From Balanoglossus misakiensis (lineage: Eukaryota; Animalia; Hemichordata): a stretch of DNA of 64,000 nucleotides. Below, piece by piece: positions 3,301 through 61,012 of this stretch (positions are counted from its first letter, which is position 1; the number at the start of each line of letters is the position of its first letter). Position numbers and translations under genes: made by a program. Below the pieces are notes generated by a model. That model was not told the DNA's origin. It did no database searches and was given only the letters and a program-made list of their open reading frames with translations. The stretch covers positions 62,001 through 126,000 of the forward strand of contig JBECUI020000029.1 of NCBI GenBank assembly GCA_040954595.2. Direction: 5' to 3'.

Positions 3301-5492
3301 TTCTGTAAAATAGACATTTAATTGGCAAGCCGTCCTGCATCAATTATTAATTGTGTACATGCACTAAAGCGCCCTCACTGCTGGGTGTGTTGTATGGTCT
3401 TTAACCCTGTTTCAAATTAGAGTACTTTCTGCAATTTCAAGACAGATCTTACGTGCCATTGGAGAGCTCCATTGACTGGTCATTCATACTGTTTTCATTC
3501 ATTCATTGCGGCATCAATATATTTTATCTATTCTAGCCAAAGAGCTTGGCACCTGTTGAAATGAACTCATCTGCTGTGGGCCAGTTTATTGGTGGCAGTT
3601 GAGCTGAGGAGAGCACCTTCCTTCCCGGCACGCCACCAAGTAAAGTTCCACGCCGCCCACCACAGATGCCAGCATTCATTCATGCGAGTGAGTGTAATTG
3701 CAAATTTGCCTATTCTAGATTCTTACGTGCCATTGGAGAGCTCCATTGACTGGTCATTCATACTGTTTTCATTCATTCATTGCGGCATCAATATATTTTA
3801 TCTATTCTAGCCAAAGAGCTTGGCACCTGTTGAAATGAACTCATCTGCTGTGGGCCAGTTTATTGGTGGCAGTTGAGCTGAGGAGAGCACCTTCCTTCCC
3901 GGCACGCCACCAAGTAAAGTTCCACGCCGCCCACCACAGATGCCAGCATTCATTCATGCGAGTGAGTGTAATTGCAAATTTGCCTATTCTAGAATCTTAC
4001 GTGCCATTGGAGAGCTCCATTGACTGGTCATTCATACTGTTTTCATTCATTCATTGCGGCATCAATATATTTTATCTATTCTAGCCAAAGAGCTTGGCAC
4101 CTGTTGAAATGAACTCATCTGCTGTGGGCCAGTTTATTGGTGGCAGTTGAGCTGAGGAGAGCACCTTCCTTCCCGGCACGCCACCAAGTAAAGTTCCACG
4201 CCGCCCACCACAGATGCCAGCATTCATTCATGCGAGTGAGTGTAATTGCAAATTTGCCTATTCTAGATCTGTAATGGAAATGGAGAAAGTACCTTATATT
4301 TTCTGTAAAATAGACATTTAATTGGCAAGCCGTCCTGCATCAATTATTAATTGTGTACATGCACTAAAGCGCCCTCACTGCTGGGTGTGTTGTATGGTCT
4401 TTAACCCTGTTTCAAATTAGAGTACTTTCTGCAATTTCAAGACAGATCTTACGTGCCATTGGAGAGCTCCATTGACTGGTCATTCATACTGTTTTCATTC
4501 ATTCATTGCGGCATCAATATATTTTATCTATTCTAGCCAAAGAGCTTGGCACCTGTTGAAATGAACTCATCTGCTGTGGGCCAGTTTATTGGTGGCAGTT
4601 GAGCTGAGGAGAGCACCTTCCTTCCCGGCACGCCACCAAGTAAAGTTCCACGCCGCCCACCACAGATGCCAGCATTCATTCATGCGAGTGAGTGTAATTG
4701 CAAATTTGCCTATTCTAGATCTGTAATGGAAATGGAGAAAGTACCTTATATTTTCTGTAAAATAGACATTTAATTGGCAAGCCGTCCTGCATCAATTATT
4801 AATTGTGTACATGCACTAAAGCGCCCTCACTGCTGGGTGTGTTGTATGGTCTTTAACCCTGTTTCAAATTAGAGTACTTTCTGCAATTTCAAGACAGATC
4901 TTACGTGCCATTGGAGAGCTCCATTGACTGGTCATTCATACTGTTTTCATTCATTCATTGCGGCATCAATATATTTTATCTATTCTAGCCAAAGAGCTTG
5001 GCACCTGTTGAAATGAACTCATCTGCTGTGGGCCAGTTTATTGGTGGCAGTTGAGCTGAGGAGAGCACCTTCCTTCCCGGCACGCCACCAAGTAAAGTTC
5101 CACGCCGCCCACCACAGATGCCAGCATTCATTCATGCGAGTGAGTGTAATTGCAAATTTGCCTATTCTAGATCTGTAATGGAAATGGAGAAAGTACCTTA
5201 TATTTTCTGTAAAATAGACATTTAATTGGCAAGCCGTCCTGCATCAATTATTAATTGTGTACATGCACTAAAGCGCCCTCACTGCTGGGTGTGTTGTATG
5301 GTCTTTAACCCTGTTTCAAATTAGAGTACTTTCTGCAATTTCAAGACAGATCTTACGTGCCATTGGAGAGCTCCATTGACTGGTCATTCATACTGTTTTC
5401 ATTCATTCATTGCGGCATCAATATATTTTATCTATTCTAGCCAAAGAGCTTGGCACCTGTTGAAATGAACTCATCTGCTGTGGGCCAGTTTA

Positions 5493-18300: not shown

Positions 18301-20028
18301 TCTAGCCAAAGAGCTTGGCACCTGTTGAAATGAACTCATCTGCTGTGGGCCAGTTTATTGGTGGCAGTTGAGCTGAGGAGAGCACCTTCCTTCCCGGCAC
18401 GCCACCAAGTAAAGTTCCACGCCGCCCACCACAGATGCCAGCATTCATTCATGCGAGTGAGTGTAATTGCAAATTTGCCTATTCTAGATCTGTAATGGAA
18501 ATGGAGAAAGTACCTTATATTTTCTGTAAAATAGACATTTAATTGGCAAGCCGTCCTGCATCAATTATTAATTGTGTACATGCACTAAAGCGCCCTCACT
18601 GCTGGGTGTGTTGTATGGTCTTTAACCCTGTTTCAAATTAGAGTACTTTCTGCAATTTCAAGACAGATCTTACGTGCCATTGGAGAGCTCCATTGACTGG
18701 TCATTCATACTGTTTTCATTCATTCATTGCGGCATCAATATATTTTATCTATTCTAGCCAAAGAGCTTGGCACCTGTTGAAATGAACTCATCTGCTGTGG
18801 GCCAGTTTATTGGTGGCAGTTGAGCTGAGGAGAGCACCTTCCTTCCCGGCACGCCACCAAGTAAAGTTCCACGCCGCCCACCACAGATGCCAGCATTCAT
18901 TCATGCGAGTGAGTGTAATTGCAAATTTGCCTATTCTAGATCTGTAATGGAAATGGAGAAAGTACCTTATATTTTCTGTAAAATAGACATTTAATTGGCA
19001 AGCCGTCCTGCATCAATTATTAATTGTGTACATGCACTAAAGCGCCCTCACTGCTGGGTGTGTTGTATGGTCTTTAACCCTGTTTCAAATTAGAGTACTT
19101 TCTGCAATTTCAAGACAGATCTTACGTGCCATTGGAGAGCTCCATTGACTGGTCATTCATACTGTTTTCATTCATTCATTGCGGCATCAATATATTTTAT
19201 CTATTCTAGCCAAAGAGCTTGGCACCTGTTGAAATGAACTCATCTGCTGTGGGCCAGTTTATTGGTGGCAGTTGAGCTGAGGAGAGCACCTTCTTTCCCG
19301 GCACGCCACCAAGTAAAGTTCCACGCCGCCCACCACAGATGCCAGCATTCATTCATGCGAGTGAGTGTAATTGCAAATTTGCCTATTTACGTGCCATTGG
19401 AGAGCTCCATTGACTGGTCATTCATACTGTTTTCATTCATTCATTGCGGCATCAATATATTTTATCTATTCTAGCCAAAGAGCTTGGCACCTGTTGAAAT
19501 GAACTCATCTGCTGTGGGCCAGTTTATTGGTGGCAGTTGAGCTGAGGAGAGCACCTTCCTTCCCGGCACGCCACCAAGTAAAGTTCCACGCCGCCCACCA
19601 CAGATGCCAGCATTCATTCATGCGAGTGAGTGTAATTGCAAATTTGCCTATTCTAGATCTGTAATGGAAATGGAGAAAGTACCTTATATTTTCTGTAAAA
19701 TAGACATTTAATTGGCAAGCCGTCCTGCATCAATTATTAATTGTGTACATGCACTAAAGCGCCCTCACTGCTGGGTGTGTTGTATGGTCTTTAACCCTGT
19801 TTCAAATTAGAGTACTTTCTGCAATTTCAAGACAGATCTTACGTGCCATTGGAGAGCTCCATTGACTGGTCATTCATACTGTTTTCATTCATTCATTGCG
19901 GCATCAATATATTTTATCTATTCTAGCCAAAGAGCTTGGCACCTGTTGAAATGAACTCATCTGCTGTGGGCCAGTTTATTGGTGGCAGTTGAGCTGAGGA
20001 GAGCACCTTCCTTCCCGGCACGCCACCA

Positions 20029-21832
20029 AGTAAAGTTCCACGTGCATTCCTGGCCCTGGTTTTATTTATGTTTACAGACAATATTGCATTTTTGTACAAG
20101 TATTTTAATCAACTATAAATTTTGAATGTGTCATTTACCTGAACCGGTCATGTTGACCAGAATGATACATTTCTGCCTTCACTCACCCTATAAATATGTG
20201 ATTGAGACATAGGTCATTTGCATAAGCTAACATACCAGAAAGTAAGCATATCTGTTGTTTTCCCTGTGTCACTGCCATCAAAGTAAAAATTAGACGTTGT
20301 GTAGAGCAAACTCCAATTTTTTGTTCTCAATAAACATGGATGAATTACATAGAATGTGTTTGTTGTTTACAGTCTTTAAATGACACATTAGATTATGCAC
20401 TTTACAAAACGTTTCTGAGAAACAAGTGACTAACTAGTTTCTTTCCACTGTGGCCAACGTGGTTCACTGTTTGTGTCAGAATCTCTCTGTTTTGCAAGGA
20501 TTTTGAAATCATAGTGGTGACATGCATAGTGAAAATCAGCTACTTTCAAATGTCCGTCATGTTCATGCTGTAATTGAATTTTCAAAGCTGGGCTGGCGTG
20601 TTTTTTCTTATTTACATAAGTATCACACTTTATACATGTATCTTCATGGGGTTTTTTGAGTCCCGTATTTAGGTCCTCTCTCACAATTTTACGAAATATC
20701 GTATAACTGACAGTTGTTCTTCCCAGAAGAGATTGGTTGGTTATGAACTCTCGGTGTAACTGCGATATACTGTGGGCCGGCGCCAGGTACGGTTTAAATC
20801 GAGGATTCCTGCAGTAGTGAGATTCTACAATTCTGTGCCTGCGTACGTGTTCAGTGATATCAGTCAGCAAATTTGGATTGAGTTTCCGACGATGCCCTTT
20901 GTGTCGGCCCCTTGCATCTGGCATCAGACCAGTAAAGTTCCATGTGCATTCCTGGCCCTGGTTTTATTTATGTTTACAGACAATATTGCATTTTTGTACA
21001 AGTATTTTAATCAACTATAAATTTTGAATGTGTCATTTACCTGAACCGGTCATGTTGACCAGAATGATACATTTCTGCCTTCACTCACCCTATAAATATG
21101 TGATTGAGACATAGGTCATTTGCATAAGCTAACATACCAGAAAGTAAGCATATCTGATGTTTTCCCTGTGTCACTGCCATCAAAGTAAAAATTAGACGTT
21201 GTGTAGAGCAAACTCCAATTTTTTGTTCTCAATAAACATGGATGAATTACATAGAATGTGTTTGTTGTTTACAGTCTTTAAATGACACATTAGATTATGC
21301 ACTTTACAAAACGTTTCTGAGAAACAAGTGACTAACTAGTTTCTTTCCACTGTGGCCAACGTGGTTCACTGTTTGTGTCAGAATCTCTCTGTTTTGCAAG
21401 GATTTTGAAATCATAGTGGTGACATGCATAGTGAAAATCAGCTACTTTCAAATGTCCGTCATGTTCATGCTGTAATTGAATTTTCAAAGCTGGGCTGGCG
21501 TGTTTTTTCTTATTTACATAAGTATCACACTTTATACATGTATCTTCATGGGGTTTTCTGAGTCCCGTATTTAGGTCCTCTCTCACAATTTTACGAAATA
21601 TCGTATAACTGACAGTTGTTCTTCCCAGAAGAGATTGGTTGGTTATGAACTCTCGGTGTAACTGCGATATACTGTGGTCCGGTGCCAGGTACGGTTTAAA
21701 TCGAGGATTCCTGCAGTAGTGAGATTCTACAATTCTGTGCCTGCGTACGTGTTCAGTGATATCAGTCAGCAAATTTGGATTGAGTTTCCGACGATGCCCT
21801 TTGTGTCGGCCCCTTGCATCTGGCATCAGACC
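20029..21832. repeat. 902-bp direct tandem duplication (20029-20930 and 20931-21832)
   Basis: agtaaagttcca(c/t)gtgcattcctggcc occurs at 20029 and 20931, and the ORF stops at 20430 and 21332 are 902 bp apart. There are few substitutions and an AGT microhomology at the junction. Confidence 0.95.
20430..20924 (-). pseudogene. 5'-truncated duplicate (164 aa) of the transposase N-terminal-half gene
   Basis: Matches the last 164 aa of the 21332-22288 protein apart from two substitutions (PAH/PDH, LKK/LRK). It is cut off by the duplication junction. Confidence 0.8.
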
Positions 21833-22288
21833 AGTTGAACAGTGCATCATTTTGCTTAGAACGGTTCTAGTCCGCCTCTCACTAATGCCAAATAATTTCA
21901 GGAATGCATTTTTGCAGACAGTAACCGTTTCACCGCCTTCATTCACCAGGTGATAACGAACCGATTTCTTGTGTGACTTCATCTGCATATCCATCAGTTT
22001 GTAGAGCATCAAGTTCTGTTCATTATACACGCGACCATCAAAATATTTTCTCGTGGTGCCTAAAACATGCGTACTCCCAAGCTTCCGCATACAATTCCCT
22101 TGAACGCAGGCGCATTCCAAGGAAAGACTGTCAATATCTGGAAAAGGGCGATTTTTCCTTGGTTTTTGTCTCGGACACGTCTTTTTAGAATTCCTACGTG
22201 GCTTGTTGGCTCGAGCTGACAGTTCGGTTCTGCGTTGCTGCCACACAGGAATGGGTTCCCACGCATAAGCAACTCCCCGGCAGGCCAT
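21332..22288 (-). CDS. Sola1-like DNA transposase, N-terminal (DNA/Zn-binding) half, 318 aa from ATG 22288
   Basis: Motifs VCKNAFLKLFGIS, DARGRH, ESHYCR..YL..SISQLH, VSYTIFRKI and KPHEDTCIKCD..HDGHL match the region that precedes the catalytic core in invertebrate Sola1-type transposases (recognised from memory). The ORF is intact and a minus-strand AATAAA lies at ~20963-20968. Confidence 0.75.
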   Translation of the reverse strand: MACRGVAYAWEPIPVWQQRRTELSARANKPRRNSKKTCPRQKPRKNRPFPDIDSLSLECACVQGNCMRKLGSTHVLGTTRKYFDGRVYNEQNLMLYKLMDMQMKSHKKSVRYHLVNEGGETVTVCKNAFLKLFGISERRTRTVLSKMMHCSTGLMPDARGRHKGHRRKLNPNLLTDITEHVRRHRIVESHYCRNPRFKPYLAPDHSISQLHREFITNQSLLGRTTVSYTIFRKIVREDLNTGLRKPHEDTCIKCDTYVNKKKHASPALKIQLQHEHDGHLKVADFHYACHHYDFKILAKQRDSDTNSEPRWPQWKETS

Positions 22289-22335
22289 GGTCACAGCTGA
22301 AGTATTTGTTCAAGTACTGACTGACTAAACGCGGC

Positions 22336-23469
22336 ATGGAACAAACGAACGAACGACTTCACGTTCGGAAAAAAAATCGTTGCGAGCTGTTGGGTGCATG
22401 CCTCTATAGTTGTCGGCAACCGTTCTTTTTTATTGCTAAACAATGCTGTCAGAGCATGGAAGGTGTGGTGGAAAACGAACAGAGGTTTTGTACGACCAAC
22501 GATTGGATGGTGCTACATATGGACTTCCACAAGTCATTGCCGGTTCCTAAACTCAGCTCTGAAGACTTTTACTTTAAATCGAAATTGCAAATGAAGCTCC
22601 TTGGAATTTACAACGGGACAACGGAAAAGATGCATTGTTATGTATGGACAGAGCTCGATAGCAGAAAGTCTCCCGATGAAGTTATTACCTGTCTAAATCA
22701 CTTTTTTTATAACTCGGGTGTGACCAGCAGACATGCAGTTATTTACAGCGACAACTGCCGTGCCGAATTCAAGTGTGGGAAGTTAATGTTTTACTATGAC
22801 TATCTGTTACGAAAGGGCGTGTTTCGACGAATTGACTATAAAACTCTTGTGGCTGGACACACGTACTCCACCTGTGACCGAGTTTTTGCGTCCATTGAAA
22901 GGCATGCAAGTCGTTTCCAGAGTATAGAGACACCTCACGATTGGACATCTGTGATTCGAGGATCTTCTCTGAATGGGAACATTGGAGTTACGGAGATGAC
23001 TCACAGAGACTTTTTCAATTATTCTGATTTCCTGAAAAATGAGTACGTTGTGCGTTATGCAGATACAAACAATGTAACTTTTTACTACCAAGCCATGCAC
23101 TATTTTAATTTTGGAGAAGGAGAAAGGCTTGATACCGACGGCAACCTCAGAACATTTAGTCATGCAGATAAAGTTTGGGTGAGAACATCTCTAGATCCAA
23201 GCGAGACCCCGATTGTAGTCGACTTTAGAAAGAAGAAGCAGAACCGGCGTTTACAAGATTGTACGCTGAACAAACTTTATCAGGAACGTCGACCACTGGC
23301 GAGCAAAGTTTGGCGGGATCTTCAGAGTTTAGCCAAAAATTACCTGTCTCCGGAGGCAATAGAATTTTATAGGAATCTACCGCTTCAGGAGAGTAGTGGC
23401 ACCTCTGCAGACCCGTACGCCTTTCATGATGATGACGACGACGATGATGATGATATGGGCGGTGGTTGA
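22336..23469 (+). CDS. Sola1-like DDD transposase, catalytic (RNase H-fold) half, 377 aa (337 aa if ATG 22456 is used)
   Basis: Motifs HMDFHKSLPVP, FYFKSKL, CYVWTE..RKSPDEVITCL, IYSDNC and KTLVAGHTYSTCDRVFASIE supply three candidate catalytic Asp residues. There is a poly-Asp tail and AATAAA overlaps the stop (23469-23474). Confidence 0.82.
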   Translation: MEQTNERLHVRKKNRCELLGACLYSCRQPFFFIAKQCCQSMEGVVENEQRFCTTNDWMVLHMDFHKSLPVPKLSSEDFYFKSKLQMKLLGIYNGTTEKMHCYVWTELDSRKSPDEVITCLNHFFYNSGVTSRHAVIYSDNCRAEFKCGKLMFYYDYLLRKGVFRRIDYKTLVAGHTYSTCDRVFASIERHASRFQSIETPHDWTSVIRGSSLNGNIGVTEMTHRDFFNYSDFLKNEYVVRYADTNNVTFYYQAMHYFNFGEGERLDTDGNLRTFSHADKVWVRTSLDPSETPIVVDFRKKKQNRRLQDCTLNKLYQERRPLASKVWRDLQSLAKNYLSPEAIEFYRNLPLQESSGTSADPYAFHDDDDDDDDDMGGG

Positions 23470-23630
23470 ATAAACTGTCCTTTTCATGACGACAGTGATT
23501 TTGGATATTTGATGTGCGTGCACAGTTTATATGTAATATTTTCACACGAACGAGTTTTGACTGAATTTGATTAAAGAATGTACTCGATAATTAACAAATG
23601 TGCTGAATCGTGGTTATTATGTTGTTAATT

Positions 23631-23670
23631 TTTGTTTGTTTGTTTGTTTGTTTGTTTGTTTGTTTGTTTG
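23631..23670 (+). repeat. (TTTG)10 microsatellite
   Basis: Directly visible; also present in copy 2 at ~56486-56525. Confidence 0.95.
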
Positions 23671-23803
23671 TAAACAATTTCCGTTCATTCAACTGGCTAC
23701 AAAGTTGGATTTTTGTACTGGGAAGCGATAAACTCGCACATCAAAACCGGGGAGACTCGATCATTTTTCCCTGCAGGTAGCCTGAAAAGCACCCGGGCAG
23801 AGA

Positions 23804-23877
23804 TTACGTCATATATGGTCCACTTTAATACGAAATTATGCAAATGTGACATTTCACGGAAACGGCGTATATAAAAG
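23804..23877 (+). promoter_or_regulatory. Putative Pol II promoter of the winged-helix-SET gene
   Basis: CRE-like TTACGTCA at 23804, octamer ATGCAAAT at 23838 and TATATAAAAG at 23868, about 90 bp upstream of ATG 23969. Confidence 0.5.
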
Positions 23878-23968
23878 CGACCCTGGGCTATTGTTCGGAA
23901 TGCGTCATCGACGAGAGAGTGACTGATAATTCTTCTACCTCGAGTCAACCATTCTGTATATACTGAAC

Positions 23969-25306
23969 ATGGCTAGCTGGCGCAGGAAGAGACAAGGCAA
24001 TGTGCGGTCTGTAATCAACGAACGGCACCGCTCAGTTCAGTGTCCCTTTCTTCAAAAGTGGATCGGTGAGCAATTGGTATTTTCAGGTCGTTCAGAGGAT
24101 GAAGTCCAGTCCAGTACTGTATTTGAGAGCTACAAATGTTGGGTTGAAAACTATTCGTCGGCGGACAATCAAGTAATGATTATGGTTACTAAAGCTCGAT
24201 TTTTCAAGGTGAGAATGATCGCATTTTTCTTTCCCCCCCCCCCCCTCCCTCCCTCCCTCCCCCAAGGGACTCGTTTTCTGTCTCTTTTAAACCTGTAACT
24301 TAACGAAAAGGAAGTTTTTCACATATCTCTTCGTTGACACTATAGCAATTTGGAGCGCGGATGCTTCAAGAGAAGAGCGTTACCAAATCAAAGTCGGCCG
24401 GGGTTAATATTTATAGAGGTGTTCGTCTGAAAGCTGGTTCGCGAAGAATCTCAACGGGGAAACCTGAGCACAGTGTACTTCAGACCAGGGCAAGGGCATT
24501 TCTTGATGACGCCAGCGTGACCGTTCCGATCGAGGTAAGAATGGTGTTTTGTTTGGACTAGGACAATAGAACGTTGCAATGAGTGTGTCAATGGGTGTCC
24601 AAGTGCAAACGTGGTCTGCTTCTGTCCACAAATGCCATTAATTTTTGGCAGGATTTATAAAATTGTCAATGAAGAATACAAAAATGAAAAACAACAGTTA
24701 ATAGCAAACTGGTAGGATTGCAAGGGCTTGTAAAACGGTACACACTGTACCAGGAAGTTTGCAACACTAATGAAGAATGTATATGATATATTTAGGTGAG
24801 AACTGTTCGCGATCGCCGGGACGCAGGACGGTGCGCGTTTTCGACGAGGGATATTCAAGCCTGGGACGTCGTCTGCGAATACCGGGGCACGGTTATTAGC
24901 GTTGAAGAAGCTAGTCGGCGTGATGAGCTTTACAGGGCAGAGGGGAAACGACCACGCATGTTCCATCTCTACATTGGAAAGAGACACGTTGTGTGAGTGT
25001 ATCACTTAGTCGAATATATGGTCATATATTGCAAAGCATCTGTCGAAATAGAAAACGTAATATTGTCTATATTTTCCTCATTAACGCAGCATTGACGGAT
25101 ACGATGTCCCAGCCGGTGAAGAAAATTTAGCAGGCCTAATAAATCACAGTCAGCAGAACGCCAACTTGGTACCGGTTCGGATCGGAGAGCGCCTGGTTTT
25201 CTTTGCAACCAGGAATCTTTGTCAGGGAGTAGAGCTTTTGTATGATTACGGTGACGGGGGTGAAGAGGATTTCTTCAGTGGTTCTCAAACTTTTCCTGAA
25301 AATTAA
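23969..25306 (+). CDS. Winged-helix plus SET-domain lysine methyltransferase (SETD8/PR-Set7-like), 280 aa; exons 23969-24208, 24346-24534, 24796-24992, 25090-25306
   Basis: Three GT-AG introns (gtgaga/tatag, gtaaga/tttag, gtgagt/cgcag) join in frame to give 843 nt. SET motifs are AGRCAFSTRDI, VCEYRGTVI, IDG, LINHS and ELLYDYGD. The N-terminus VFESYKCWVEN..KARFFKQFG..IYRGVRLK resembles the winged helix of RFX factors and D5/P4 primase C-termini. Confidence 0.88.
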
Positions 25307-26209
25307 GGCATTAACACATCAACGCTTCGGGGTGTCGTAACGGCGGCGCGGCGGGGGGGGGGGGGACGTGAAAATGTTTGTATCAGGAACAAAATTCCCG
25401 TGCAAATCACCTTGATCCGGGTGGGTGGACTATTCGCGACAAATGTTGAAATCATACAAAGCATTTTACTTAATTAACCCATTTTTTTCATTTATTTGTT
25501 TACAGTTTACAACGTCATAGAGAAGTTGAACTAGAGACTGGATCAGCGTGGGTGACACCATAGTACACCAATGTTTTCTTCAGTTTGATTCAATTGTAAT
25601 TTAAAACTGAGATTGCCTAACGCTTTCCCAGATTTTTTTAACCACTGAGAAACTGTGGGTTTTTTTCTGGGTTTTGGTGCGAGGTGATCTCAGTCAGTGG
25701 TGTTAATTTAATTAATCATTTTCTTTTCCTATTTACGTCGACTGAAATGTATTTTGATAGGTGATAGTCATACCATAAAAAAAATCTTACGGCGCGACTG
25801 CCAAAATGTACATTTATTTGTCCGTTCCAAGTTATTTTGTGTATGTGTGATGGGTGCCGGTGACTGTGCAGGGTTGATTTCCCTAGAGCGACTGTTATAT
25901 TCGTTTTCCAACGATGATGAATTTACATGTTATTTGCTTGGCATTTTGACGCAGAGACACTTCTGAAAACACAAACCTATTAATTATGCCACGGGTGTAA
26001 ATTGATCACATTAAAAGAGGCTTTAGACGTTTGCCGCGAGCTCCTGGTGGGCAGAATCTTGTCAGCCCAAATTTGACTATAAGTACATAGCCAATGATGT
26101 GACGCTCTCCCACATCCTTCGCCGCGCCTTTTCGCTGATTTACAGCATCTTGCGTAAACACTGTCATTTGATCTTGCTTGGCAGAAGTCAACTTGCTCTA
26201 TACTACATT

Positions 26210-26575
26210 ATGGCGGCCAAGCTCAACTGCATATCAGATAATGCCAAGGAGCGTTTGAGAGGCATCCTCGCCAGAAGGAGTCGCGTTTCCGGTGACTGTG
26301 TGCTCTGGACGGGTGCAGCTTGTCGAAACGGCTATGGCTCTATTACGTTCAGAGATGAGAACACTCTAACCGCCTATGTCCATCACATTGCACTCCTAAT
26401 TAACGGAGTGCAATTGGTGGGCAGGCGGTTAGAGTGTTCTCATCTTTGCAACGAAAAGCTATGCATCCGCCCAGAGCACATTGTCCAGGAAACGCGACTC
26501 CTAAACATTTCACGAAAGACGTGCTTTAAATCCCCAAAAGGGGAGTGTCACCACGATCCCAGGTGCCTAAGGTGA
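26210..26575 (+). CDS. His-Cys box (I-PpoI-like, His-Me finger) endonuclease, 121 aa
   Basis: Motifs CVLWTG..NGYG, YVHH, CSHLCNEKLCIRPEHIVQE..N..RKTC..CHHDPRC match the zinc-binding-loop homing endonuclease pattern. The first ATG is at 26210 (the ORF-track start at 26099 is GTG). Confidence 0.88.
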   Translation: MAAKLNCISDNAKERLRGILARRSRVSGDCVLWTGAACRNGYGSITFRDENTLTAYVHHIALLINGVQLVGRRLECSHLCNEKLCIRPEHIVQETRLLNISRKTCFKSPKGECHHDPRCLR

Positions 26576-26845
26576 GTAATCCTCTTCTCATTTGATATGT
26601 ATTGTGTGACCCTGCAGTTGAAACGCTTTCATCAATAATTTGCGGCGCGTGGGTAATCTCGGTGTTATTGACAATGCAGCCGGCCCAAACATTTTTAAAT
26701 TAACACTGTTTCTGACTGTATTAACGAAATGTCCAATTTGCAAGTAGCCTATAGACAACCCTTTTGAATGAGTTTTGTCTCGTTGAGATTTTATACATAA
26801 GGAACAATCTAGATTTATTTTAGAAGACACTGTTCTTTTAAAACA

Positions 26846-27237
26846 GCTAGCATAATACAGCTAAATTTCGGAATTTCCGGACAATTTTCGGAATTCCTTT
26901 TAAATTTGAGAAATTTTTCATCAGATATAAGTGTTACTATTTATTGGACATGTTTTTATCATTGTTTACTTTTTAAGGTCATTCTCACCCCCCCCCCCCC
27001 AAAAAAAGCCGCTTTAGGCTTCATGTTCAGTAAAAAATCTGGAAAGTTCAGCTGAATTTTACACTGATCACACATTTTTGGGAAGGTCTGGCGCAAAATA
27101 AAGGATGACAAATGTAAATCTAATGTCACATTTGTAAACCTCTAAGTATTGTACACTCATTCTATTAAGTATATGCAAATAGTACGGATAATTTTTTCGG
27201 AATGTGGAATTCCGAAATTAGTTCGGAACGTGTTAGC
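26846..27237. mobile_element. Possible decayed non-autonomous DNA element with imperfect inverted ends
   Basis: ctaaatttcggaatt (26861) is inverted relative to aattccgaaattag (27208), and TTCGGAA-like motifs cluster at both ends. No TSD was identified. Confidence 0.3.
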
Positions 27238-27483
27238 AGTGAAGAGATCACCACTGAGGGTTGGAAGGCCTTGCCAGAAATTAACGCGTAAAGTACGCCC
27301 TCACAGGCCATGTAAACAAGGTCAAATAAGGCCGTCTGGCAAACGAATGATTAATTCAACGCGCCATTTGAGCCGAGCTGAGTTGGTCTGAGTTGCGTAT
27401 CACACAGACTTAGGCTGAATGTCAGTGGAGTAACCAGTCCGTTTTAGATTTACCAATGATGTGAATTTAATTTCTTCACCCAG

Positions 27484-27890
27484 AAAAACAGAACACAACT
27501 TGTCTGCAACATGATGCTGGAGGTGACACATGACAGAGAAGTGGATCCGCGTTGTCAACACAGATGCCAGCATTCAAAAGGGGAGTGCCACCTGCTAAAA
27601 TCAACTCATCTGCTGTTGGCCCATTTTACCTGTGGCAACTGTTCAGAGGAGACAACGTTTATTCCGTGCAAGCCAACACGCAATGTTGGGGTCTACCTGT
27701 CAACACAGATGCAAGCATTCATGTGAGTGAGTATCAGGACTGACCTTGTATTTGCTGAATAATTCATAATGCCTATTTTAGAATTCTTAGAGGCATTTGG
27801 AGTTCATTGCCTGGTCAACCAAACTACACCCCTTAACAGCTGAAACAAAATGCGTATTGTGTTCATTCATTCATTGCATCAATATATATA
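27484..27890 (+). repeat. Diverged progenitor-like copies of the array monomer (two hairpins plus the intron-like part)
   Basis: Segments colinear with the monomer: cacagatgccagcattca, aactcatctgctgttggcc, gtgagtgagt, tgcctattttagaattctta and ttcattcattcattgcatcaatatat. Confidence 0.85.
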
Positions 27891-28151
27891 GGCAACATGA
27901 GTATCAAGTAGCACTATTTGTTTACGATTGTATTCATGAAAACTTCCCACTAACAATTCCACAGTTAATATTGAACACATTTATCCAACAAGGTCAAAAG
28001 AAAAAGGGAATCTTCTGGTTCCAAAATACGCCACAAATGTGGGTCAACATACAGTGAAATATTATGGTGCTCAAATATGCAACATATCAAATCTGTCTCA
28101 TCAAAGTCATGCTTTAAAAAAGAATTGAAAAGGTATTATTTATCCATTTGA
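27875..28151 (+). pseudogene. Decayed 3' end of a non-LTR retrotransposon ORF2 (CR1/L2/Crack-like)
   Basis: The frameshifted translation YQVALFVYDCIHENFP / HIYPTRSKEKGNLLVPKYATNVGQHTVKYYGAQICN / IKSVSSKSCFKKELKRYYL* matches the typical HxYxTR..LxVP..TxxG..YxG..WN..FKxxLK C-terminus of these LINEs. Confidence 0.75.
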
Positions 28152-28194
28152 CTGCTGTATTTTCAGAAGGAAAACAAACTGAATTTGGTTTTTC

Positions 28195-31100
28195 AAGTAC
28201 CTTATATTTTCTGTAAAATAGACATTTAATTGGCAAGCCGTCCTGCATCAATTATTAATTGTGTACATGCACTAAAGCGCCCTCACTGCTGGGTGTGTTG
28301 TATGGTCTTTAACCCTGTTTCAAATTAGAGTACTTTCTGCAATTTCAAGACAGATCTTACGTGCCATTGGAGAGCTCCATTGACTGGTCATTCATACTGT
28401 TTTCATTCATTCATTGCGGCATCAATATATTTTATCTATTCTAGCCAAAGAGCTTGGCACCTGTTGAAATGAACTCATCTGCTGTGGGCCAGTTTATTGG
28501 TGGCAGTTGAGCTGAGGAGAGCACCTTCCTTCCCGGCACGCCACCAAGTAAAGTTCCACGCCGCCCACCACAGATGCCAGCATTCATTCATGCGAGTGAG
28601 TGTAATTGCAAATTTGCCTATTCTAGATCTGTAATGGAAATGGAGAAAGTACCTTATATTTTCTGTAAAATAGACATTTAATTGGCAAGCCGTCCTGCAT
28701 CAATTATTAATTGTGTACATGCACTAAAGCGCCCTCACTGCTGGGTGTGTTGTATGGTCTTTAACCCTGTTTCAAATTAGAGTACTTTCTGCAATTTCAA
28801 GACAGATCTTACGTGCCATTGGAGAGCTCCATTGACTGGTCATTCATACTGTTTTCATTCATTCATTGCGGCATCAATATATTTTATCTATTCTAGCCAA
28901 AGAGCTTGGCACCTGTTGAAATGAACTCATCTGCTGTGGGCCAGTTTATTGGTGGCAGTTGAGCTGAGGAGAGCACCTTCCTTCCCGGCACGCCACCAAG
29001 TAAAGTTCCACGCCGCCCACCACAGATGCCAGCATTCATTCATGCGAGTGAGTGTAATTGCAAATTTGCCTATTCTAGATCTGTAATGGAAATGGAGAAA
29101 GTACCTTATATTTTCTGTAAAATAGACATTTAATTGGCAAGCCGTCCTGCATCAATTATTAATTGTGTACATGCACTAAAGCGCCCTCACTGCTGGGTGT
29201 GTTGTATGGTCTTTAACCCTGTTTCAAATTAGAGTACTTTCTGCAATTTCAAGACAGATCTTACGTGCCATTGGAGAGCTCCATTGACTGGTCATTCATA
29301 CTGTTTTCATTCATTCATTGCGGCATCAATATATTTTATCTATTCTAGCCAAAGAGCTTGGCACCTGTTGAAATGAACTCATCTGCTGTGGGCCAGTTTA
29401 TTGGTGGCAGTTGAGCTGAGGAGAGCACCTTCCTTCCCGGCACGCCACCAAGTAAAGTTCCACGCCGCCCACCACAGATGCCAGCATTCATTCATGCGAG
29501 TGAGTGTAATTGCAAATTTGCCTATTCTAGATCTGTAATGGAAATGGAGAAAGTACCTTATATTTTCTGTAAAATAGACATTTAATTGGCAAGCCGTCCT
29601 GCATCAATTATTAATTGTGTACATGCACTAAAGCGCCCTCACTGCTGGGTGTGTTGTATGGTCTTTAACCCTGTTTCAAATTAGAGTACTTTCTGCAATT
29701 TCAAGACAGATCTTACGTGCCATTGGAGAGCTCCATTGACTGGTCATTCATACTGTTTTCATTCATTCATTGCGGCATCAATATATTTTATCTATTCTAG
29801 CCAAAGAGCTTGGCACCTGTTGAAATGAACTCATCTGCTGTGGGCCAGTTTATTGGTGGCAGTTGAGCTGAGGAGAGCACCTTCTTTCCCGGCACGCCAC
29901 CAAGTAAAGTTCCACGCCGCCCACCACAGATGCCAGCATTCATTCATGCGAGTGAGTGTAATTGCAAATTTGCCTATTCTAGATCTGTAATGGAAATGGA
30001 GAAAGTACCTTATATTTTCTGTAAAATAGACATTTAATTGGCAAGCCGTCCTGCATCAATTATTAATTGTGTACATGCACTAAAGCGCCCTCACTGCTGG
30101 GTGTGTTGTATGGTCTTTAACCCTGTTTCAAATTAGAGTACTTTCTGCAATTTCAAGACAGATCTTACGTGCCATTGGAGAGCTCCATTGACTGGTCATT
30201 CATACTGTTTTCATTCATTCATTGCGGCATCAATATATTTTATCTATTCTAGCCAAAGAGCTTGGCACCTGTTGAAATGAACTCATCTGCTGTGGGCCAG
30301 TTTATTGGTGGCAGTTGAGCTGAGGAGAGCACCTTCCTTCCCGGCACGCCACCAAGTAAAGTTCCACGCCGCCCACCACAGATGCCAGCATTCATTCATG
30401 CGAGTGAGTGTAATTGCAAATTTGCCTATTCTAGATCTGTAATGGAAATGGAGAAAGTACCTTATATTTTCTGTAAAATAGACATTTAATTGGCAAGCCG
30501 TCCTGCATCAATTATTAATTGTGTACATGCACTAAAGCGCCCTCACTGCTGGGTGTGTTGTATGGTCTTTAACCCTGTTTCAAATTAGAGTACTTTCTGC
30601 AATTTCAAGACAGATCTTACGTGCCATTGGAGAGCTCCATTGACTGGTCATTCATACTGTTTTCATTCATTCATTGCGGCATCAATATATTTTATCTATT
30701 CTAGCCAAAGAGCTTGGCACCTGTTGAAATGAACTCATCTGCTGTGGGCCAGTTTATTGGTGGCAGTTGAGCTGAGGAGAGCACCTTCCTTCCCGGCACG
30801 CCACCAAGTAAAGTTCCACGCCGCCCACCACAGATGCCAGCATTCATTCATGCGAGTGAGTGTAATTGCAAATTTGCCTATTCTAGAATTCTTACGTGCC
30901 ATTGGAGAGCTCCATTGACTGGTCATTCATACTGTTTTCATTCATTCATTGCGGCATCAATATATTTTATCTATTCTAGCCAAAGAGCTTGGCACCTGTT
31001 GAAATGAACTCATCTGCTGTGGGCCAGTTTATTGGTGGCAGTTGAGCTGAGGAGAGCACCTTCCTTCCCGGCACGCCACCAAGTAAAGTTCCACGCCGCC

Positions 31101-52100: not shown

Positions 52101-52897
52101 GGAGAAAGTACCTTATATTTTCTGTAAAATAGACATTTAATTGGCAAGCCGTCCTGCATCAATTATTAATTGTGTACATGCACTAAAGCGCCCTCACTGC
52201 TGGGTGTGTTGTATGGTCTTTAACCCTGTTTCAAATTAGAGTACTTTCTGCAATTTCAAGACAGATCTTACGTGCCATTGGAGAGCTCCATTGACTGGTC
52301 ATTCATACTGTTTTCATTCATTCATTGCGGCATCAATATATTTTACAGCCGAAATTATGAAAGGTCGCCGATTCAATATGTGATCTAGACGTCCTGTGTG
52401 CACTGAACACACGATGTGTTTATCTAACACAAACAACAGAACCTCTCATAAAAGAGATGCGGTATCATTAGACTAATTACAGATGGTAGTCTGGAAACAC
52501 GCTCCCCCTCAGAGAGAGTTGTTTACTTGGGTACGATGTCAAAGTTTAATCTCAAAGTGTATACGCTTTATGTTGAGAGTGTACCCAAGTAAACAACTCT
52601 CTCTGAGGGGGAGCGTGTTTCCAGACTACCATCTGTAATTAGTCTAATGATACCGCATCTCTTTTATGAGAGGTTCTGTTGTTTGTGTTAGATAAACACA
52701 TCGTGTGTTCAGTGCACACAGGACGTCTAGATCACATATTGAATCGGCGACCTTTCATAATTTCGGCTGTATCTATTCTAGCCAAAGAGCTTGGCACCTG
52801 TTGAAATGAACTCATCTGCTGTGGGCCAGTTTATTGGTGGCAGTTGAGCTGAGGAGAGCACCTTCCTTCCCGGCACGCCACCAAGTACAGTTCCACG
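28195..52897 (+). repeat. Tandem array 2: ~65 monomers (24.7 kb) between the two cassettes
   Basis: Same monomer classes as array 1, with three full higher-order blocks separated by variable runs of mostly 452-bp units. Confidence 0.98.
52346..52769. mobile_element. 424-bp palindromic MITE (Tc1/mariner-type): 189-bp TIRs, 46-bp spacer, TA target-site duplication
   Basis: Reads TA|cagccgaaattatgaaaggtcgccg...cggcgacctttcataatttcggctg|TA, with arms at 52346-52534 and 52581-52769. The empty site 'attttatctattc' is present in the other monomers. Confidence 0.96.
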
Positions 52898-54687
52898 TGC
52901 ATTCCTGGCCCTGGTTTTATTTATGTTTACAGACAATATTGCATTTTTGTACAAGTATTTTAATCAACTATAAATTTTGAATGTGTCATTTACCTGAACC
53001 GGTCATGTTGACCAGAATGATACATTTCTGCCTTCACTCACCCTATAAATATGTGATTGAGACATAGGTCATTTGCATAAGCTAACATACCAGAAAGTAA
53101 GCATATCTGTTGTTTTCCCTGTGTCACTGCCATCAAAGTAAAAATTAGACGTTGTGTAGAGCAAACTCCAATTTTTTGTTCTCAATAAACATGGATGAAT
53201 TACATAGAATGTGTTTGTTGTTTACAGTCTTTAAATGACACATTAGATTATGCACTTTACAAAACGTTTCTGAGAAACAAGTGACTAACTAGTTTCTTTC
53301 CACTGTGGCCAACGTGGTTCACTGTTTGTGTCAGAATCTCTCTGTTTTGCAAGGATTTTGAAATCATAGTGGTGACATGCATAGTGAAAATCAGCTACTT
53401 TCAAATGTCCGTCATGTTCATGCTGTAATTGAATTTTCAAAGCTGGGCTGGCGTGTTTTTTCTTATTTACATAAGTATCACACTTTATACATGTATCTTC
53501 ATGGGGTTTTTTGAGTCCCGTATTTAGGTCCTCTCTCACAATTTTACGAAATATCGTATAACTGACAGTTGTTCTTCCCAGAAGAGATTGGTTGGTTATG
53601 AACTCTCGGTGTAACTGCGATATACTGTGGGCCGGCGCCAGGTACGGTTTAAATCGAGGATTCCTGCAGTAGTGAGATTCTACAATTCTGTGCCTGCGTA
53701 CGTGTTCAGTGATATCAGTCAGCAAATTTGGATTGAGTTTCCGACGATGCCCTTTGTGTCGGCCCCTTGCATCTGGCATCAGACCAGTAAAGTTCCATGT
53801 GCATTCCTGGCCCTGGTTTTATTTATGTTTACAGACAATATTGCATTTTTGTACAAGTATTTTAATCAACTATAAATTTTGAATGTGTCATTTACCTGAA
53901 CCGGTCATGTTGACCAGAATGATACATTTCTGCCTTCACTCACCCTATAAATATGTGATTGAGACATAGGTCATTTGCATAAGCTAACATACCAGAAAGT
54001 AAGCATATCTGATGTTTTCCCTGTGTCACTGCCATCAAAGTAAAAATTAGACGTTGTGTAGAGCAAACTCCAATTTTTTGTTCTCAATAAACATGGATGA
54101 ATTACATAGAATGTGTTTGTTGTTTACAGTCTTTAAATGACACATTAGATTATGCACTTTACAAAACGTTTCTGAGAAACAAGTGACTAACTAGTTTCTT
54201 TCCACTGTGGCCAACGTGGTTCACTGTTTGTGTCAGAATCTCTCTGTTTTGCAAGGATTTTGAAATCATAGTGGTGACATGCATAGTGAAAATCAGCTAC
54301 TTTCAAATGTCCGTCATGTTCATGCTGTAATTGAATTTTCAAAGCTGGGCTGGCGTGTTTTTTCTTATTTACATAAGTATCACACTTTATACATGTATCT
54401 TCATGGGGTTTTCTGAGTCCCGTATTTAGGTCCTCTCTCACAATTTTACGAAATATCGTATAACTGACAGTTGTTCTTCCCAGAAGAGATTGGTTGGTTA
54501 TGAACTCTCGGTGTAACTGCGATATACTGTGGTCCGGCGCCAGGTACGGTTTAAATCGAGGATTCCTGCAGTAGTGAGATTCTACAATTCTGTGCCTGCG
54601 TACGTGTTCAGTGATATCAGTCAGCAAATTTGGATTGAGTTTCCGACGATGCCCTTTGTGTCGGCCCCTTGCATCTGGCATCAGACC
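52884..54687. repeat. 902-bp tandem duplication, copy 2
   Basis: ORF stops at 53285 and 54187 are 902 bp apart, with the same junction as copy 1. Confidence 0.95.
53285..53779 (-). pseudogene. 5'-truncated duplicate of the transposase N-terminal-half gene, copy 2
   Basis: Same protein as 20430-20924. Confidence 0.8.
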
Positions 54688-55143
54688 AGTTGAACAGTGC
54701 ATCATTTTGCTTAGAACGGTTCTAGTCCGCCTCTCACTAATGCCAAATAATTTCAGGAATGCATTTTTGCAGACAGTAACCGTTTCACCGCCTTCATTCA
54801 CCAGGTGATAACGAACCGATTTCTTGTGTGACTTCATCTGCATATCCATCAGTTTGTAGAGCATCAAGTTCTGTTCATTATACACGCGACCATCAAAATA
54901 TTTTCTCGTGGTGCCTAAAACATGCGTACTCCCAAGCTTCCGCAGACAATTCCCTTGAACGCAGGCGCATTCCAAGGAAAGACTGTCAATATCTGGAAAA
55001 GGGCGATTTTTCCTTGGTTTTTGTCTCGGACACGTCTTTTTAGAATTCCTACGTGGCTTGTTGGCTCGAGCTGACAGTTCGGTTCTGCGTTGCTGCCACA
55101 CAGGAATGGGTTCCCACGCATAAGCAACTCCCCGGCAGGCCAT
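54187..55143 (-). CDS. Sola1-like transposase N-terminal half, copy 2
   Basis: Identical to 21332-22288 except CMRK to CLRK. Confidence 0.75.
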   Translation of the reverse strand: MACRGVAYAWEPIPVWQQRRTELSARANKPRRNSKKTCPRQKPRKNRPFPDIDSLSLECACVQGNCLRKLGSTHVLGTTRKYFDGRVYNEQNLMLYKLMDMQMKSHKKSVRYHLVNEGGETVTVCKNAFLKLFGISERRTRTVLSKMMHCSTGLMPDARGRHKGHRRKLNPNLLTDITEHVRRHRIVESHYCRNPRFKPYLAPDHSISQLHREFITNQSLLGRTTVSYTIFRKIVREDLNTGLRKPHEDTCIKCDTYVNKKKHASPALKIQLQHEHDGHLKVADFHYACHHYDFKILAKQRDSDTNSEPRWPQWKETS

Positions 55144-55190
55144 GGTCACAGCTGAAGTATTTGTTCAAGTACTGACTGACTAAACGCGGC

Positions 55191-56324
55191 ATGGAACAAA
55201 CGAACGAACGACTTCACGTTCGGAAAAAAAATCGTTGCGAGCTGTTGGGTGCATGCCTCTATAGTTGTCGGCAACCGTTCTTTTTTATTGCTAAACAATG
55301 CTGTCAGAGCATGGAAGGTGTGGTGGAAAACGAACAGAGGTTTTGTACGACCAACGATTGGATGGTGCTACATATGGACTTCCACAAGTCATTGCCGGTT
55401 CCTAAACTCAGCTCTGAAGACTTTTACTTTAAATCGAAATTGCAAATGAAGCTCCTTGGAATTTACAACGGGACAACGGAAAAGATGCATTGTTATGTAT
55501 GGACAGAGCTCGATAGCAGAAAGTCTCCCGATGAAGTTATTACCTGTCTAAATCACTTTTTTTATAACTCGGGTGTGACCAGCAGACATGCAGTTATTTA
55601 CAGCGACAACTGCCGTGCCGAATTCAAGTGTGGGAAGTTAATGTTTTACTATGACTATCTGTTACGAAAGGGCGTGTTTCGACGAATTGACTATAAAACT
55701 CTTGTGGCTGGACACACGTACTCCACCTGTGACCGAGTTTTTGCGTCCATTGAAAGGCATGCAAGTCGTTTCCAGAGTATAGAGACACCTCACGATTGGA
55801 CATCTGTGATTCGAGGATCTTCTCTGAATGGGAACATTGGAGTTACGGAGATGACTCACAGAGACTTTTTCAATTATTCTGATTTCCTGAAAAATGAGTA
55901 CGTTGTGCGTTATGCAGATACAAACAATGTAACTTTTTACTACCAAGCCATGCACTATTTTAATTTTGGAGAAGGAGAAAGGCTTGATACCGACGGCAAC
56001 CTCAGAACATTTAGTCATGCAGATAAAGTTTGGGTGAGAACATCTCTAGATCCAAGCGAGACCCCGATTGTAGTCGACTTTAGAAAGAAGAAGCAGAACC
56101 GGCGTTTACAAGATTGTACGCTGAACAAACTTTATCAGGAACGTCGACCACTGGCGAGCAAAGTTTGGCGGGATCTTCAGAGTTTAGCCAAAAATTACCT
56201 GTCTCCGGAGGCAATAGAATTTTATAGGAATCTACCGCTTCAGGAGAGTAGTGGCACCTCTGCAGACCCGTACGCCTTTCATGATGATGACGACGACGAT
56301 GATGATGATATGGGCGGTGGTTGA
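55191..56324 (+). CDS. Sola1-like DDD transposase catalytic half, copy 2
   Basis: Protein identical to 22336-23469. Confidence 0.82.
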   Translation: MEQTNERLHVRKKNRCELLGACLYSCRQPFFFIAKQCCQSMEGVVENEQRFCTTNDWMVLHMDFHKSLPVPKLSSEDFYFKSKLQMKLLGIYNGTTEKMHCYVWTELDSRKSPDEVITCLNHFFYNSGVTSRHAVIYSDNCRAEFKCGKLMFYYDYLLRKGVFRRIDYKTLVAGHTYSTCDRVFASIERHASRFQSIETPHDWTSVIRGSSLNGNIGVTEMTHRDFFNYSDFLKNEYVVRYADTNNVTFYYQAMHYFNFGEGERLDTDGNLRTFSHADKVWVRTSLDPSETPIVVDFRKKKQNRRLQDCTLNKLYQERRPLASKVWRDLQSLAKNYLSPEAIEFYRNLPLQESSGTSADPYAFHDDDDDDDDDMGGG

Positions 56325-56823
56325 ATAAACTGTCCTTTTCATGACGACAGTGATTTTGGATATTTGATGTGCGTGCACAGTTTATATGTAATATTTTCAC
56401 ACGAACGAGTTTTGACTGAATTTGATTAAAGAATGTACTCGATAATTAACAAATGTGCTGAATCGTGGTTATTATGTTGTTAATTTTTGTTTGTTTGTTT
56501 GTTTGTTTGTTTGTTTGTTTGTTTGTAAACAATTTCCGTTCATTCAACTGGCTACAAAGTTGGATTTTTGTACTGGGAAGCGATAAACTCGCACATCAAA
56601 ACCGGGGAGACTCGATCATTTTTCCCTGCAGGTAGCCTGAAAAGCACCCGGGCAGAGATTACGTCATATATGGTCCACTTTAATACGAAATTATGCAAAT
56701 GTGACATTTCACGGAAACGGCGTATATAAAAGCGACCCTGGGCTATTGTTCGGAATGCGTCATCGACGAGAGAGTGACTGATAATTCTTCTACCTCGAGT
56801 CAACCATTCTGTATATACTGAAC

Positions 56824-58164
56824 ATGGCTAGCTGGCGCAGGAAGAGACAAGGCAATGTGCGGTCTGTAATCAACGAACGGCACCGCTCAGTTCAGTGTCC
56901 CTTTCTTCAAAAGTGGATCGGTGAGCAATTGGTATTTTCAGGTCGTTCAGAGGATGAAGTCCAGTCCAGTACTGTATTTGAGAGCTACAAATGTTGGGTT
57001 GAAAACTATTCGTCGGCGGACAATCAAGTAATGATTATGGTTACTAAAGCTCGATTTTTCAAGGTGAGAATGATCGCATTTTTCTTTCCCCCCCCCCCCT
57101 CCCTCCCTCCCTCCCTCCCCCAAGGGACTCGTTTTCTGTCTCTTTTAAACCTGTAACTTAACGAAAAGGAAGTTTTTCACATATCTCTTCGTTGACACTA
57201 TAGCAATTTGGAGCGCGGATGCTTCAAGAGAAGAGCGTTACCAAATCAAAGTCGGCCGGGGTTAATATTTATAGAGGTGTTCGTCTGAAAGCTGGTTCGC
57301 GAAGAATCTCAACGGGGAAACCTGAGCACAGTGTACTTCAGACCAGGGCAAGGGCATTTCTTGATGACGCCAGCGTGACCGTTCCGATCGAGGTAAGAAT
57401 GGTGTTTTGTTTGGACTAGGACAATAGAACGTTGCAATGAGTGTGTCAATGGGTGTCCAAGTGCAAACGTGGTCTGCTTCTGTCCACAAATGCCATTAAT
57501 TTTTGGCAGGATTTATAAAATTGTCAATGAAGAATACAAAAATGAAAAACAACAGTTAATAGCAAACTGGTAGGATTGCAAGGGCTTGTAAAACGGTACA
57601 CACTGTACCAGGAAGTTTGCAACACTAATGAAGAATGTATATGATATATTTAGGTGAGAACTGTTCGCGATCGCCGGGACGCAGGACGGTGCGCGTTTTC
57701 GACGAGGGATATTCAAGCCTGGGACGTCGTCTGCGAATACCGGGGCACGGTTATTAGCGTTGAAGAAGCTAGTCGGCGTGATGAGCTTTACAGGGCAGAG
57801 GGGAAACGACCACGCATGTTCCATCTCTACATTGGAAAGAGACACGTTGTGTGAGTGTATCACTTAGTCGAATATATGGTCATATATTGCAAAGCATCTG
57901 TCGAAATAGAAAACGTAATATTGTCTATATTTTCCTCATTAACGCAGCATTGACGGATACGATGTCCCAGCCGGTGAAGAAAATTTAGCAGGCCTAATAA
58001 ATCACAGTCAGCAGAACGCCAACTTGGTACCGGTTCGGATCGGAGAGCGCCTGGTTTTCTTTGCAACCAGGAATCTTTGTCAGGGAGTAGAGCTTTTGTA
58101 TGATTACGGTGACGGGGGTGAAGAGGATTTCTTCAGTGGTTCTCAAACTTTTCCTGAAAATTAA
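56824..58164 (+). CDS. Winged-helix plus SETD8-like SET protein, copy 2; exons 56824-57063, 57204-57392, 57654-57850, 57948-58164
   Basis: Same exons and splice sites as copy 1. The 3-bp length difference falls in the C-rich tract of intron 1. Confidence 0.88.
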
Positions 58165-59070
58165 GGCATTAACACATCAACGCTTCGGGGTGTCGTAACG
58201 GCGGCGCGGCGGGGGGGGGGGGGGGGACGTGAAAATGTTTGTATCAGGAACAAAATTCCCGTGCAAATCACCTTGATCCGGGTGGGTGGACTATTCGCGA
58301 CAAATGTTGAAATCATACAAAGCATTTTACTTAATTAACCCATTTTTTTCATTTATTTGTTTACAGTTTACAACGTCATAGAGAAGTTGAACTAGAGACT
58401 GGATCAGCGTGGGTGACACCATAGTACACCAATGTTTTCTTCAGTTTGATTCAATTGTAATTTAAAACTGAGATTGCCTAACGCTTTCCCAGATTTTTTT
58501 AACCACTGAGAAACTGTGGGTTTTTTTCTGGGTTTTGGTGCGAGGTGATCTCAGTCAGTGGTGTTAATTTAATTAATCATTTTCTTTTCCTATTTACGTC
58601 GACTGAAATGTATTTTGATAGGTGATAGTCATACCATAAAAAAAATCTTACGGCGCGACTGCCAAAATGTACATTTATTTGTCCGTTCCAAGTTATTTTG
58701 TGTATGTGTGATGGGTGCCGGTGACTGTGCAGGGTTGATTTCCCTAGAGCGACTGTTATATTCGTTTTCCAACGATGATGAATTTACATGTTATTTGCTT
58801 GGCATTTTGACGCAGAGACACTTCTGAAAACACAAACCTATTAATTATGCCACGGGTGTAAATTGATCACATTAAAAGAGGCTTTAGACGTTTGCCGCGA
58901 GCTCCTGGTGGGCAGAATCTTGTCAGCCCAAATTTGACTATAAGTACATAGCCAATGATGTGACGCTCTCCCACATCCTTCGCCGCGCCTTTTCGCTGAT
59001 TTACAGCATCTTGCGTAAACACTGTCATTTGATCTTGCTTGGCAGAAGTCAACTTGCTCTATACTACATT

Positions 59071-60751: not shown

Positions 60752-61012
60752 GGCAACATGAGTATCAAGTAGCACTATTTGTTTACGATTGTATTCATGA
60801 AAACTTCCCACTAACAATTCCACAGTTAATATTGAACACATTTATCCAACAAGGTCAAAAGAAAAAGGGAATCTTCTGGTTCCAAAATACGCCACAAATG
60901 TGGGTCAACATACAGTGAAATATTATGGTGCTCAAATATGCAACATATCAAATCTGTCTCATCAAAGTCATGCTTTAAAAAAGAATTGAAAAGGTATTAT
61001 TTATCCATTTGA
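60736..61012 (+). pseudogene. LINE ORF2 3' relic, copy 2
   Basis: Same sequence as 27875-28151. Confidence 0.75.

Follow-up and report, generated by a model that had tools for sequence, protein, structure and literature searches.

The window analysed here, 64,000 nucleotides of the forward strand of Balanoglossus misakiensis contig JBECUI020000029.1 (positions 62,001 to 126,000), is a satellite array broken twice by one 8.15-kb island, the two copies of which (20043-28194 and 52898-61055) are 99.9% identical. Units of 452, 274, 275 and 265 bp make up 67, 42, 4 and 8 of the 125 intervals in the array, and their order follows a higher-order pattern of approximately 7.2 kb (452 x n, 275, 452, 274, 265, 452, 274 x 4, 452, 274 x 2). 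In the 452-bp unit, the 274-bp unit is joined by a further 178 bp with 28-bp inverted repeats at its ends (for instance at 28625-28809), and the short units display four different junctions, in 36, 6, 4+1 and 8 copies, that look like footprints left by separate excisions of a small element. An almost fully palindromic insertion of 424 bp with TA on both sides (52346-52769), reminiscent of a foldback MITE, is found in the monomer just before the second island copy. The possibility that the monomer itself is coding was rejected, as its longest open stretch is 74 codons. Neither terminal inverted repeats nor a target duplication was found at the junctions of the island with the array, and any ends of an element may have been lost or may lie beyond the window. 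Nothing was found by an Rfam search of positions 19000-29500 or by ARAGORN. Within the island lie old, diverged remnants of the monomer's 274-bp part (27553-27890, forward strand; 71% identity over 151 columns at 27586-27732), which suggest that the element represented by the island gave rise to the satellite or long accompanied its growth. The copies now seen appear to be trapped in the satellite and to have multiplied as the array turned over, not by transposing.

The genes of the island form a compact 5.3-kb cluster of open frames that encode the two halves of a transposase, a fusion of a winged-helix-like domain to a SET domain (wH-SET), and a His-Me nuclease, with wH-SET lying within 0.5 and 0.9 kb of the open transposase and nuclease frames. 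The CpG o/e of the island frames ranges from 0.83 to 1.04, compared to 0.44 for the array. Six island frames had no exact match in the protein collection searched, and a provirus reading was dropped because no viral hallmark gene was seen among the island frames scanned.

The wH-SET gene extends on the forward strand from an ATG at 23969 to a stop codon at 25306, with a TATA-like box (TATAAA, 23868-23873, forward strand) 101 nt 5' of the ATG that may function in its transcription. Exon 1 (23969-24208, aa 1-80) encodes a basic N-terminus and the helical part of the predicted winged helix, exon 2 (24346-24534, aa 81-143) the wing and a linker, exon 3 (24796-24992) the first half of the SET domain with the motifs GRC and EYRG (Pfam SET, 22.4 bits), and exon 4 (25090-25306) the second half with GLINHS and ELLYDYG (Pfam SET, 32.1 bits), followed by an acidic tail and the stop. 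The donors GTGAGA (24209), GTAAGA (24535) and GTGAGT (24993) pair with acceptors ending at 24345, 24795 and 25089 to define GT-AG introns of 137, 261 and 97 nt, the second of which is in frame and rich in stops, and predicted splicing would yield a coding sequence of 843 nt and a product of 280 aa. All four exons are identical in the second island copy, where the gene, placed by offset, occupies 56824-58164. Because 30 of 4032 donor/acceptor combinations give open splice models, openness alone says little in favour of this one. The decisive support comes from XP_070545977.1, a predicted RefSeq protein of 278 aa with a SET domain from another hemichordate, Ptychodera flava, which matches the model end to end with 179 of 280 residues identical and 2 gap columns (46/80, 35/63, 48/66 and 50/71 for exons 1 to 4). 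Against this protein, the junctions chosen in a preliminary description of the locus, which had proposed four exons spliced in frame to 280 aa, rank at the top of the 30 open models (score 954, runner-up 942), and the alignment runs across all four exons, as expected if exons 1-2 are joined to exons 3-4. At the level of predicted proteins the four-exon model is thereby confirmed, and 64% identity with 2 gap columns points to purifying selection on the fusion.

A complete search of 1.84 billion representatives with HMMER, using exon 1 as the query, returned five matches, the best of which is the P. flava protein; the other four are Logan proteins that are similar over exon 1 only. In all four Logan proteins the RFxK motif is followed by Val, and reading through into intron 1 in the window gives the same Val, which fits a GT donor, and hence an intron 1, shared between these sequences. 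No full-length relative other than the P. flava protein came to light, and its cluster consists of 1 member, located on 1 contig of 29 Mb. Exon 1, exon 4 and the transposase's catalytic half had no match in word-index protein searches, related-locus scans of viral contigs, metagenomes and prokaryote genomes were empty, and motif scans of viral contigs gave no hits. The sole SET match in a search of phage records is a weak one, a SET-like stretch at 4770-5144 of the unannotated 6.6-kb record MT837890.1 (27.5% to XP_070545977.1, E 0.02).

The N-terminal domain is likely a remote winged helix of the Pox_D5/phage P4 type, judging from profile comparisons. Atlas searches with exon 1 placed 25 of 30 matches in Pox_D5 sets, the first match and the next Pox_D5 clusters scoring 0.97, 0.96 and 0.94, with the family found on 27, 25 and 71% of the members of these three clusters. 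A Pox_D5 profile that we built from 43 prokaryotic PF03288 matches gave 12.9 bits with the wH-SET model and 13.7 bits with XP_070545977.1 over aa 30-110, a stretch that crosses the joint between exons 1 and 2, and for both proteins the score was reached by 0 of 500 shuffles. Alignment of the N-domain to this profile with hhalign gave a probability of 59% and an E value of 9e-5. At the level of Pfam there was no Pox_D5 match on exon 1, exon 2 or XP_070545977.1, a PDB search with an exon 1 profile found nothing below E 0.4, and PHROGs gave no significant match for exons 1 and 2. Single-sequence AlphaFold models of exon 1 and XP_070545977.1 reached pLDDT values of 52 and 33, too low to read a fold. 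The PF03288 family takes in P4 alpha relatives, and the P4 domain (PDB 1ka8) is described in PMC10516667, in the section drawn on here, as a winged helix similar to that of RFX1. Thus, the winged-helix-like domain recognized in the preliminary description is likely genuine, if remote, and is likely of a mobile-element type, corresponding to the C-terminal domain of D5/P4 primase-helicases. Residues 1-120 of wH-SET are basic (pI 10.6), and we infer that the winged helix would bind DNA sequence-specifically.

Among solved structures, the SET domain is closest to KMT5A/SETD8, as had been proposed: the P. flava SET domain scores 41.3 bits with KMT5A, 33.3 with 4ldg, 29.6 with KMT2D and 28 with EZH2. 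With exon 3 alone, KMT2C scores above KMT5A. The motifs are as originally read, with EYRG (Y172), INHS and ELLYDYG (Y260, Y262) kept, GRG changed to GRC (C156) and RLINHS to GLINHS (G224, codon GGC at 25133). Residues Y245, N298, H299, Y334 and Y336 of KMT5A correspond to Y172, N227, H228, Y260 and Y262 of wH-SET and are also kept in XP_070545977.1. The tyrosines that had been associated with SETD8 monomethylation are therefore present, but the tyrosine of EYxG is not specific to SETD8, since KMT2C has it too. Position G224 corresponds to R295 of the 352-aa form of KMT5A (R265 of the 322-aa form), so the SAM-contacting arginine is missing, and the cysteine of GRC replaces the second glycine of GRG (KMT5A G229). 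A C-terminal tryptophan has a role in SETD8; no tryptophan follows the last tyrosine of YxY in wH-SET or its relative. The P. flava protein shares the glycine of GLINHS, the GRC and the tryptophan-free GDGGEEDFF tail with wH-SET, and because these features are common to both proteins they are conserved traits of the lineage, not decay. Other SET families that are active, SUV420 and SMYD, also lack this arginine, so that inactivity of wH-SET is not proven. Substitution of glycine for this residue in human KMT5A (R265G) leaves the enzyme without activity in vitro, according to the results given in part of PMC2373513. In the fly Set8 study bioRxiv 2022.01.30.478405, as far as its available sections go, the equivalent arginine contacts SAM and the R634G mutant is viable and behaves as a hypomorph. 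The activity of wH-SET is likely weakened or altered, the chance that it retains methyltransferase activity seems to us a little short of even, and it is doubtful that H4K20 would be its substrate.

Upstream of wH-SET lies a transposase in two pieces. The N-terminal half (21332-22309, reverse strand) is open for 325 codons and matches the N-terminal half of DUF7869-type transposases, and the catalytic half (22321-23469, forward strand) is open for 382 codons, matches Pfam DUF7869 with 54.6 bits, and carries the acidic motifs MDFH, SDNC and CDRVF, which align with those of relatives. A motif scan for DUF7869-type loci identified 38 metagenome loci (35 of them under 6 kb), 37 of which match the DUF7869 frame. 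The N-half frame is matched as well in 20, and 20 of 20 of these have both parts in collinear order on a single strand, as in the single 667-codon frame of locus L011; the other 17 match the catalytic half only, with an upstream N-terminal part visible on the same strand in L015 and L030. Given the collinear arrangement in all 20 relatives, the transposase in the window has been cut into two open, head-to-head frames. Their first ATGs are 48 bp apart, the break lies directly ahead of the catalytic domain and has cost almost no sequence, 60 open codons precede the matching part of the catalytic half, and AATAAA/ATTAAA signals lie 3' of both halves. A tandem duplicate of 902 bp (20029-20930, reverse strand) copies the N-half frame's 3' portion together with DNA downstream of it, with 3 differences in 498 coding nt. 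Retention of a duplicated helix by both halves at the split was considered and discarded, since equally good results came from 555 of 2000 shuffles. Queries with the SET, winged-helix and His-Me sequences matched 0 of the 38 metagenome loci.

Downstream of wH-SET, a frame of 121 aa (26210-26575, forward strand) encodes a His-Cys box nuclease similar to I-PpoI (Pfam zf-His_Me_endon, 49.4 bits). Folding and shuffling revealed a long hairpin within its coding sequence (26276-26502, forward strand; at approximately 59137-59363 in the second island copy), a near-perfect structure of 225 nt with an energy of -154.5 kcal/mol and a z score of -18 that none of 200 shuffles equalled. Of the 30 windows of 240 nt scanned, no other passed a z score of -3.6, and synonymous resampling of the nuclease coding sequence gave -101 +/- 8, versus -192 for the actual sequence. 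The arms of the hairpin encode the nuclease motifs CVLWTG and CIRPEH. Possibly, the hairpin is a means of silencing a toxic nuclease by its own double-stranded RNA.

wH-SET is a real, conserved fusion gene, and the anatomy assigned to it in the preliminary description stands; the accompanying story of a host centromere factor is without support. Because its neighbours in the satellite are a split transposase and a homing-type nuclease, the gene is likely a transposon's own chromatin tool and not a host writer of centromeric marks. Judging from its neighbours, the shared CpG content and precedent, wH-SET is probably cargo of a DNA transposon; if it is, there is a rather better than even prospect that it targets the element itself, and we lean slightly towards the combined reading, an accessory cargo gene aimed at the element's own chromatin. 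The island would then represent one element. By binding DNA of the element, the predicted winged helix would hold the SET domain in place, and the SETD8-derived SET domain would keep the element's chromatin open or unsilenced, either by leaving a residual methyl mark or through occupancy of a histone tail that stays unmarked. Consistent with cargo status are the compact frame cluster, the common CpG o/e, a winged helix of mobile-element type, the conservation relative to the P. flava protein, and the precedents of transposons with SET genes (HarbingerS, oomycete MuDR) and with I-PpoI-like nucleases (KolobokP). Against it, no element ends were found, the metagenome loci provided no second case of a SET gene beside a transposase (0/38), the winged-helix match is remote and lacks a Pfam hit, and a sole full-length relative, whose cluster has a single member on a single contig, is compatible with a single-copy host gene as well.

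This last point would suit a domesticated or host gene. Such a gene of hemichordate-like animals, with a transposon-derived DNA-binding domain joined to a SET domain in the manner of SETMAR, could have been carried into the array by chance together with transposon pieces, and its strong conservation, the missing element ends and a position of intron 1 apparently common to distant relatives all agree with such a history. The open frames for transposase and nuclease at such short distances on both sides, with their similar CpG content, argue the other way, as does amplification inside a satellite, and we consider a host gene improbable. A different concern is that the element was recently disabled, with an inversion splitting the transposase and leaving the SET gene as a passenger without present function. 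The collinear halves of the relatives, the closeness of the two ATGs and the 902-bp duplication, which attests to local rearrangement, are in keeping with an inversion, but both halves are open, hardly anything was lost at a break that precedes the catalytic domain, and the 60 additional codons and the signals after both halves also speak against it. We regard this as quite unlikely, and it concerns the present state of the copy; the cargo origin is unchanged by it.

The preliminary description had instead envisaged an active H4K20 monomethylase that is aimed at the satellite monomer and marks chromatin of the centromere or the array by a logic similar to that of PRDM9. KMT5A is indeed the closest solved SET domain, its tyrosines, asparagine and histidine have equivalents in both hemichordate proteins, the monomer relics indicate a long history shared with the array, and the viability of fly Set8 R634G (bioRxiv 2022.01.30.478405, in the sections available) indicates that the substitution may be only hypomorphic. 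Set against this, the change from arginine to glycine at the SAM contact corresponds to the substitution with which KMT5A is inactivated and abolishes the activity of the human enzyme in vitro in the results drawn on here, GRG has lost its second glycine to cysteine, the tryptophan is absent, and a centromeric nature of the array is without support. A transposase on one side and a homing-type nuclease on the other flank the gene, in a unit amplified with the satellite. The protein has no zinc-finger array, and a centromeric host role like that of PRDM9 is without support. An active H4K20 writer aimed at the satellite monomer seems quite improbable.

Transposon-encoded, DNA-targeted chromatin factors have been described mainly in plants, fungi and oomycetes, at least in the part of PMC12730594 consulted. 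If the reading of wH-SET as transposon cargo is correct, a compact winged-helix-SET fusion of 280 aa, conserved in a deuterostome lineage, would provide an animal example that is easy to assay. It is also a conserved, naturally occurring counterpart of the usual "dead" SETD8 mutation, and its conserved glycine provides a test of whether the substitution can be made good or is the mark of a pseudo-enzyme. With its split transposase, hairpin-forming nuclease gene and monomer relics, the island is furthermore a testable case of a satellite growing from a mobile element. More speculatively, and in our opinion doubtfully, the island may represent an undescribed lineage of animal transposons with four cooperating genes, in which a transposase that has become two divergently read subunits is accompanied by a winged-helix-SET factor that brings a writer or pseudo-writer to the element's own repeats and by a homing nuclease restrained by a hairpin in its own message, whose cuts expand an element-derived satellite.

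Literature searches found no description of this combination of wH-SET, transposase and nuclease; Repbase Reports lie outside the scope of these searches, so a record there is possible, and the main text of the P. flava genome paper contains no mention of a SET domain. The three acidic motifs of the transposase occur in the arrangement of Sola transposons, to which DUF7869 is presumably linked; unlike those, the island has its transposase in two head-to-head frames, extra genes, and no ends that could be found. The winged-helix domain of wH-SET resembles the origin-binding domain of Pox_D5 and phage P4 alpha (PF03288, PDB 1ka8, with an RFX1 fold) by a remote profile match, but is detached from the primase-helicase and fused to SET, with no match at the level of Pfam. 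The small I-PpoI-like nuclease has a parallel in KolobokP, which combines one with a transposase, has direct repeats of approximately 450 bp and forms multimers in marine invertebrates, and for which unequal crossover induced by the nuclease was proposed (PMC9587614, a paper with no mention of a SET domain or a hairpin). The transposases differ, that of the island being DUF7869 and not Kolobok-type by Pfam, and the nuclease of KolobokP is on the strand opposite to its transposase, whereas in the island the nuclease and the catalytic half share a strand. Furthermore, the direct repeats of KolobokP are bounded by their own inverted repeats, whereas here 452-bp monomers flank the island and inverted repeats bound an inner part of 185 bp only. 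The nearest precedents for the SET gene are HarbingerS and MuDR transposons of oomycetes, DNA transposons that carry a separate SET gene, as described in the relevant part of PMC12730594; the present case differs in its transposase (DUF7869 as the sole Pfam match, with no Harbinger match), in the fusion of SET to a winged helix, and in its animal host.

KMT5A (SETD8/PR-Set7), the N-terminal region of which carries a PCNA-binding degron, shares with wH-SET the EYxG, NHS and ELLYxYGD motifs and the lack of a cysteine-rich post-SET region, with about one third identity by eye to the SET domain of the P. flava protein. Glycine in place of R295, cysteine in place of G229, the missing tail tryptophan and the N-terminal winged-helix-like domain set wH-SET apart, and by the arginine and glycine positions the predicted protein is not a member of KMT5A. 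PRDM9 and SETMAR join a DNA-binding module to a SET-type domain, as does wH-SET, which, unlike SETMAR, has no mariner domain and, unlike PRDM9, no zinc-finger array; its PR profile score of 14.3 bits is below the cut-off of 27. By architecture wH-SET is not a PRDM9 member, and by analogy it may nonetheless work by tethering, as KMT5A and PRDM9 do.
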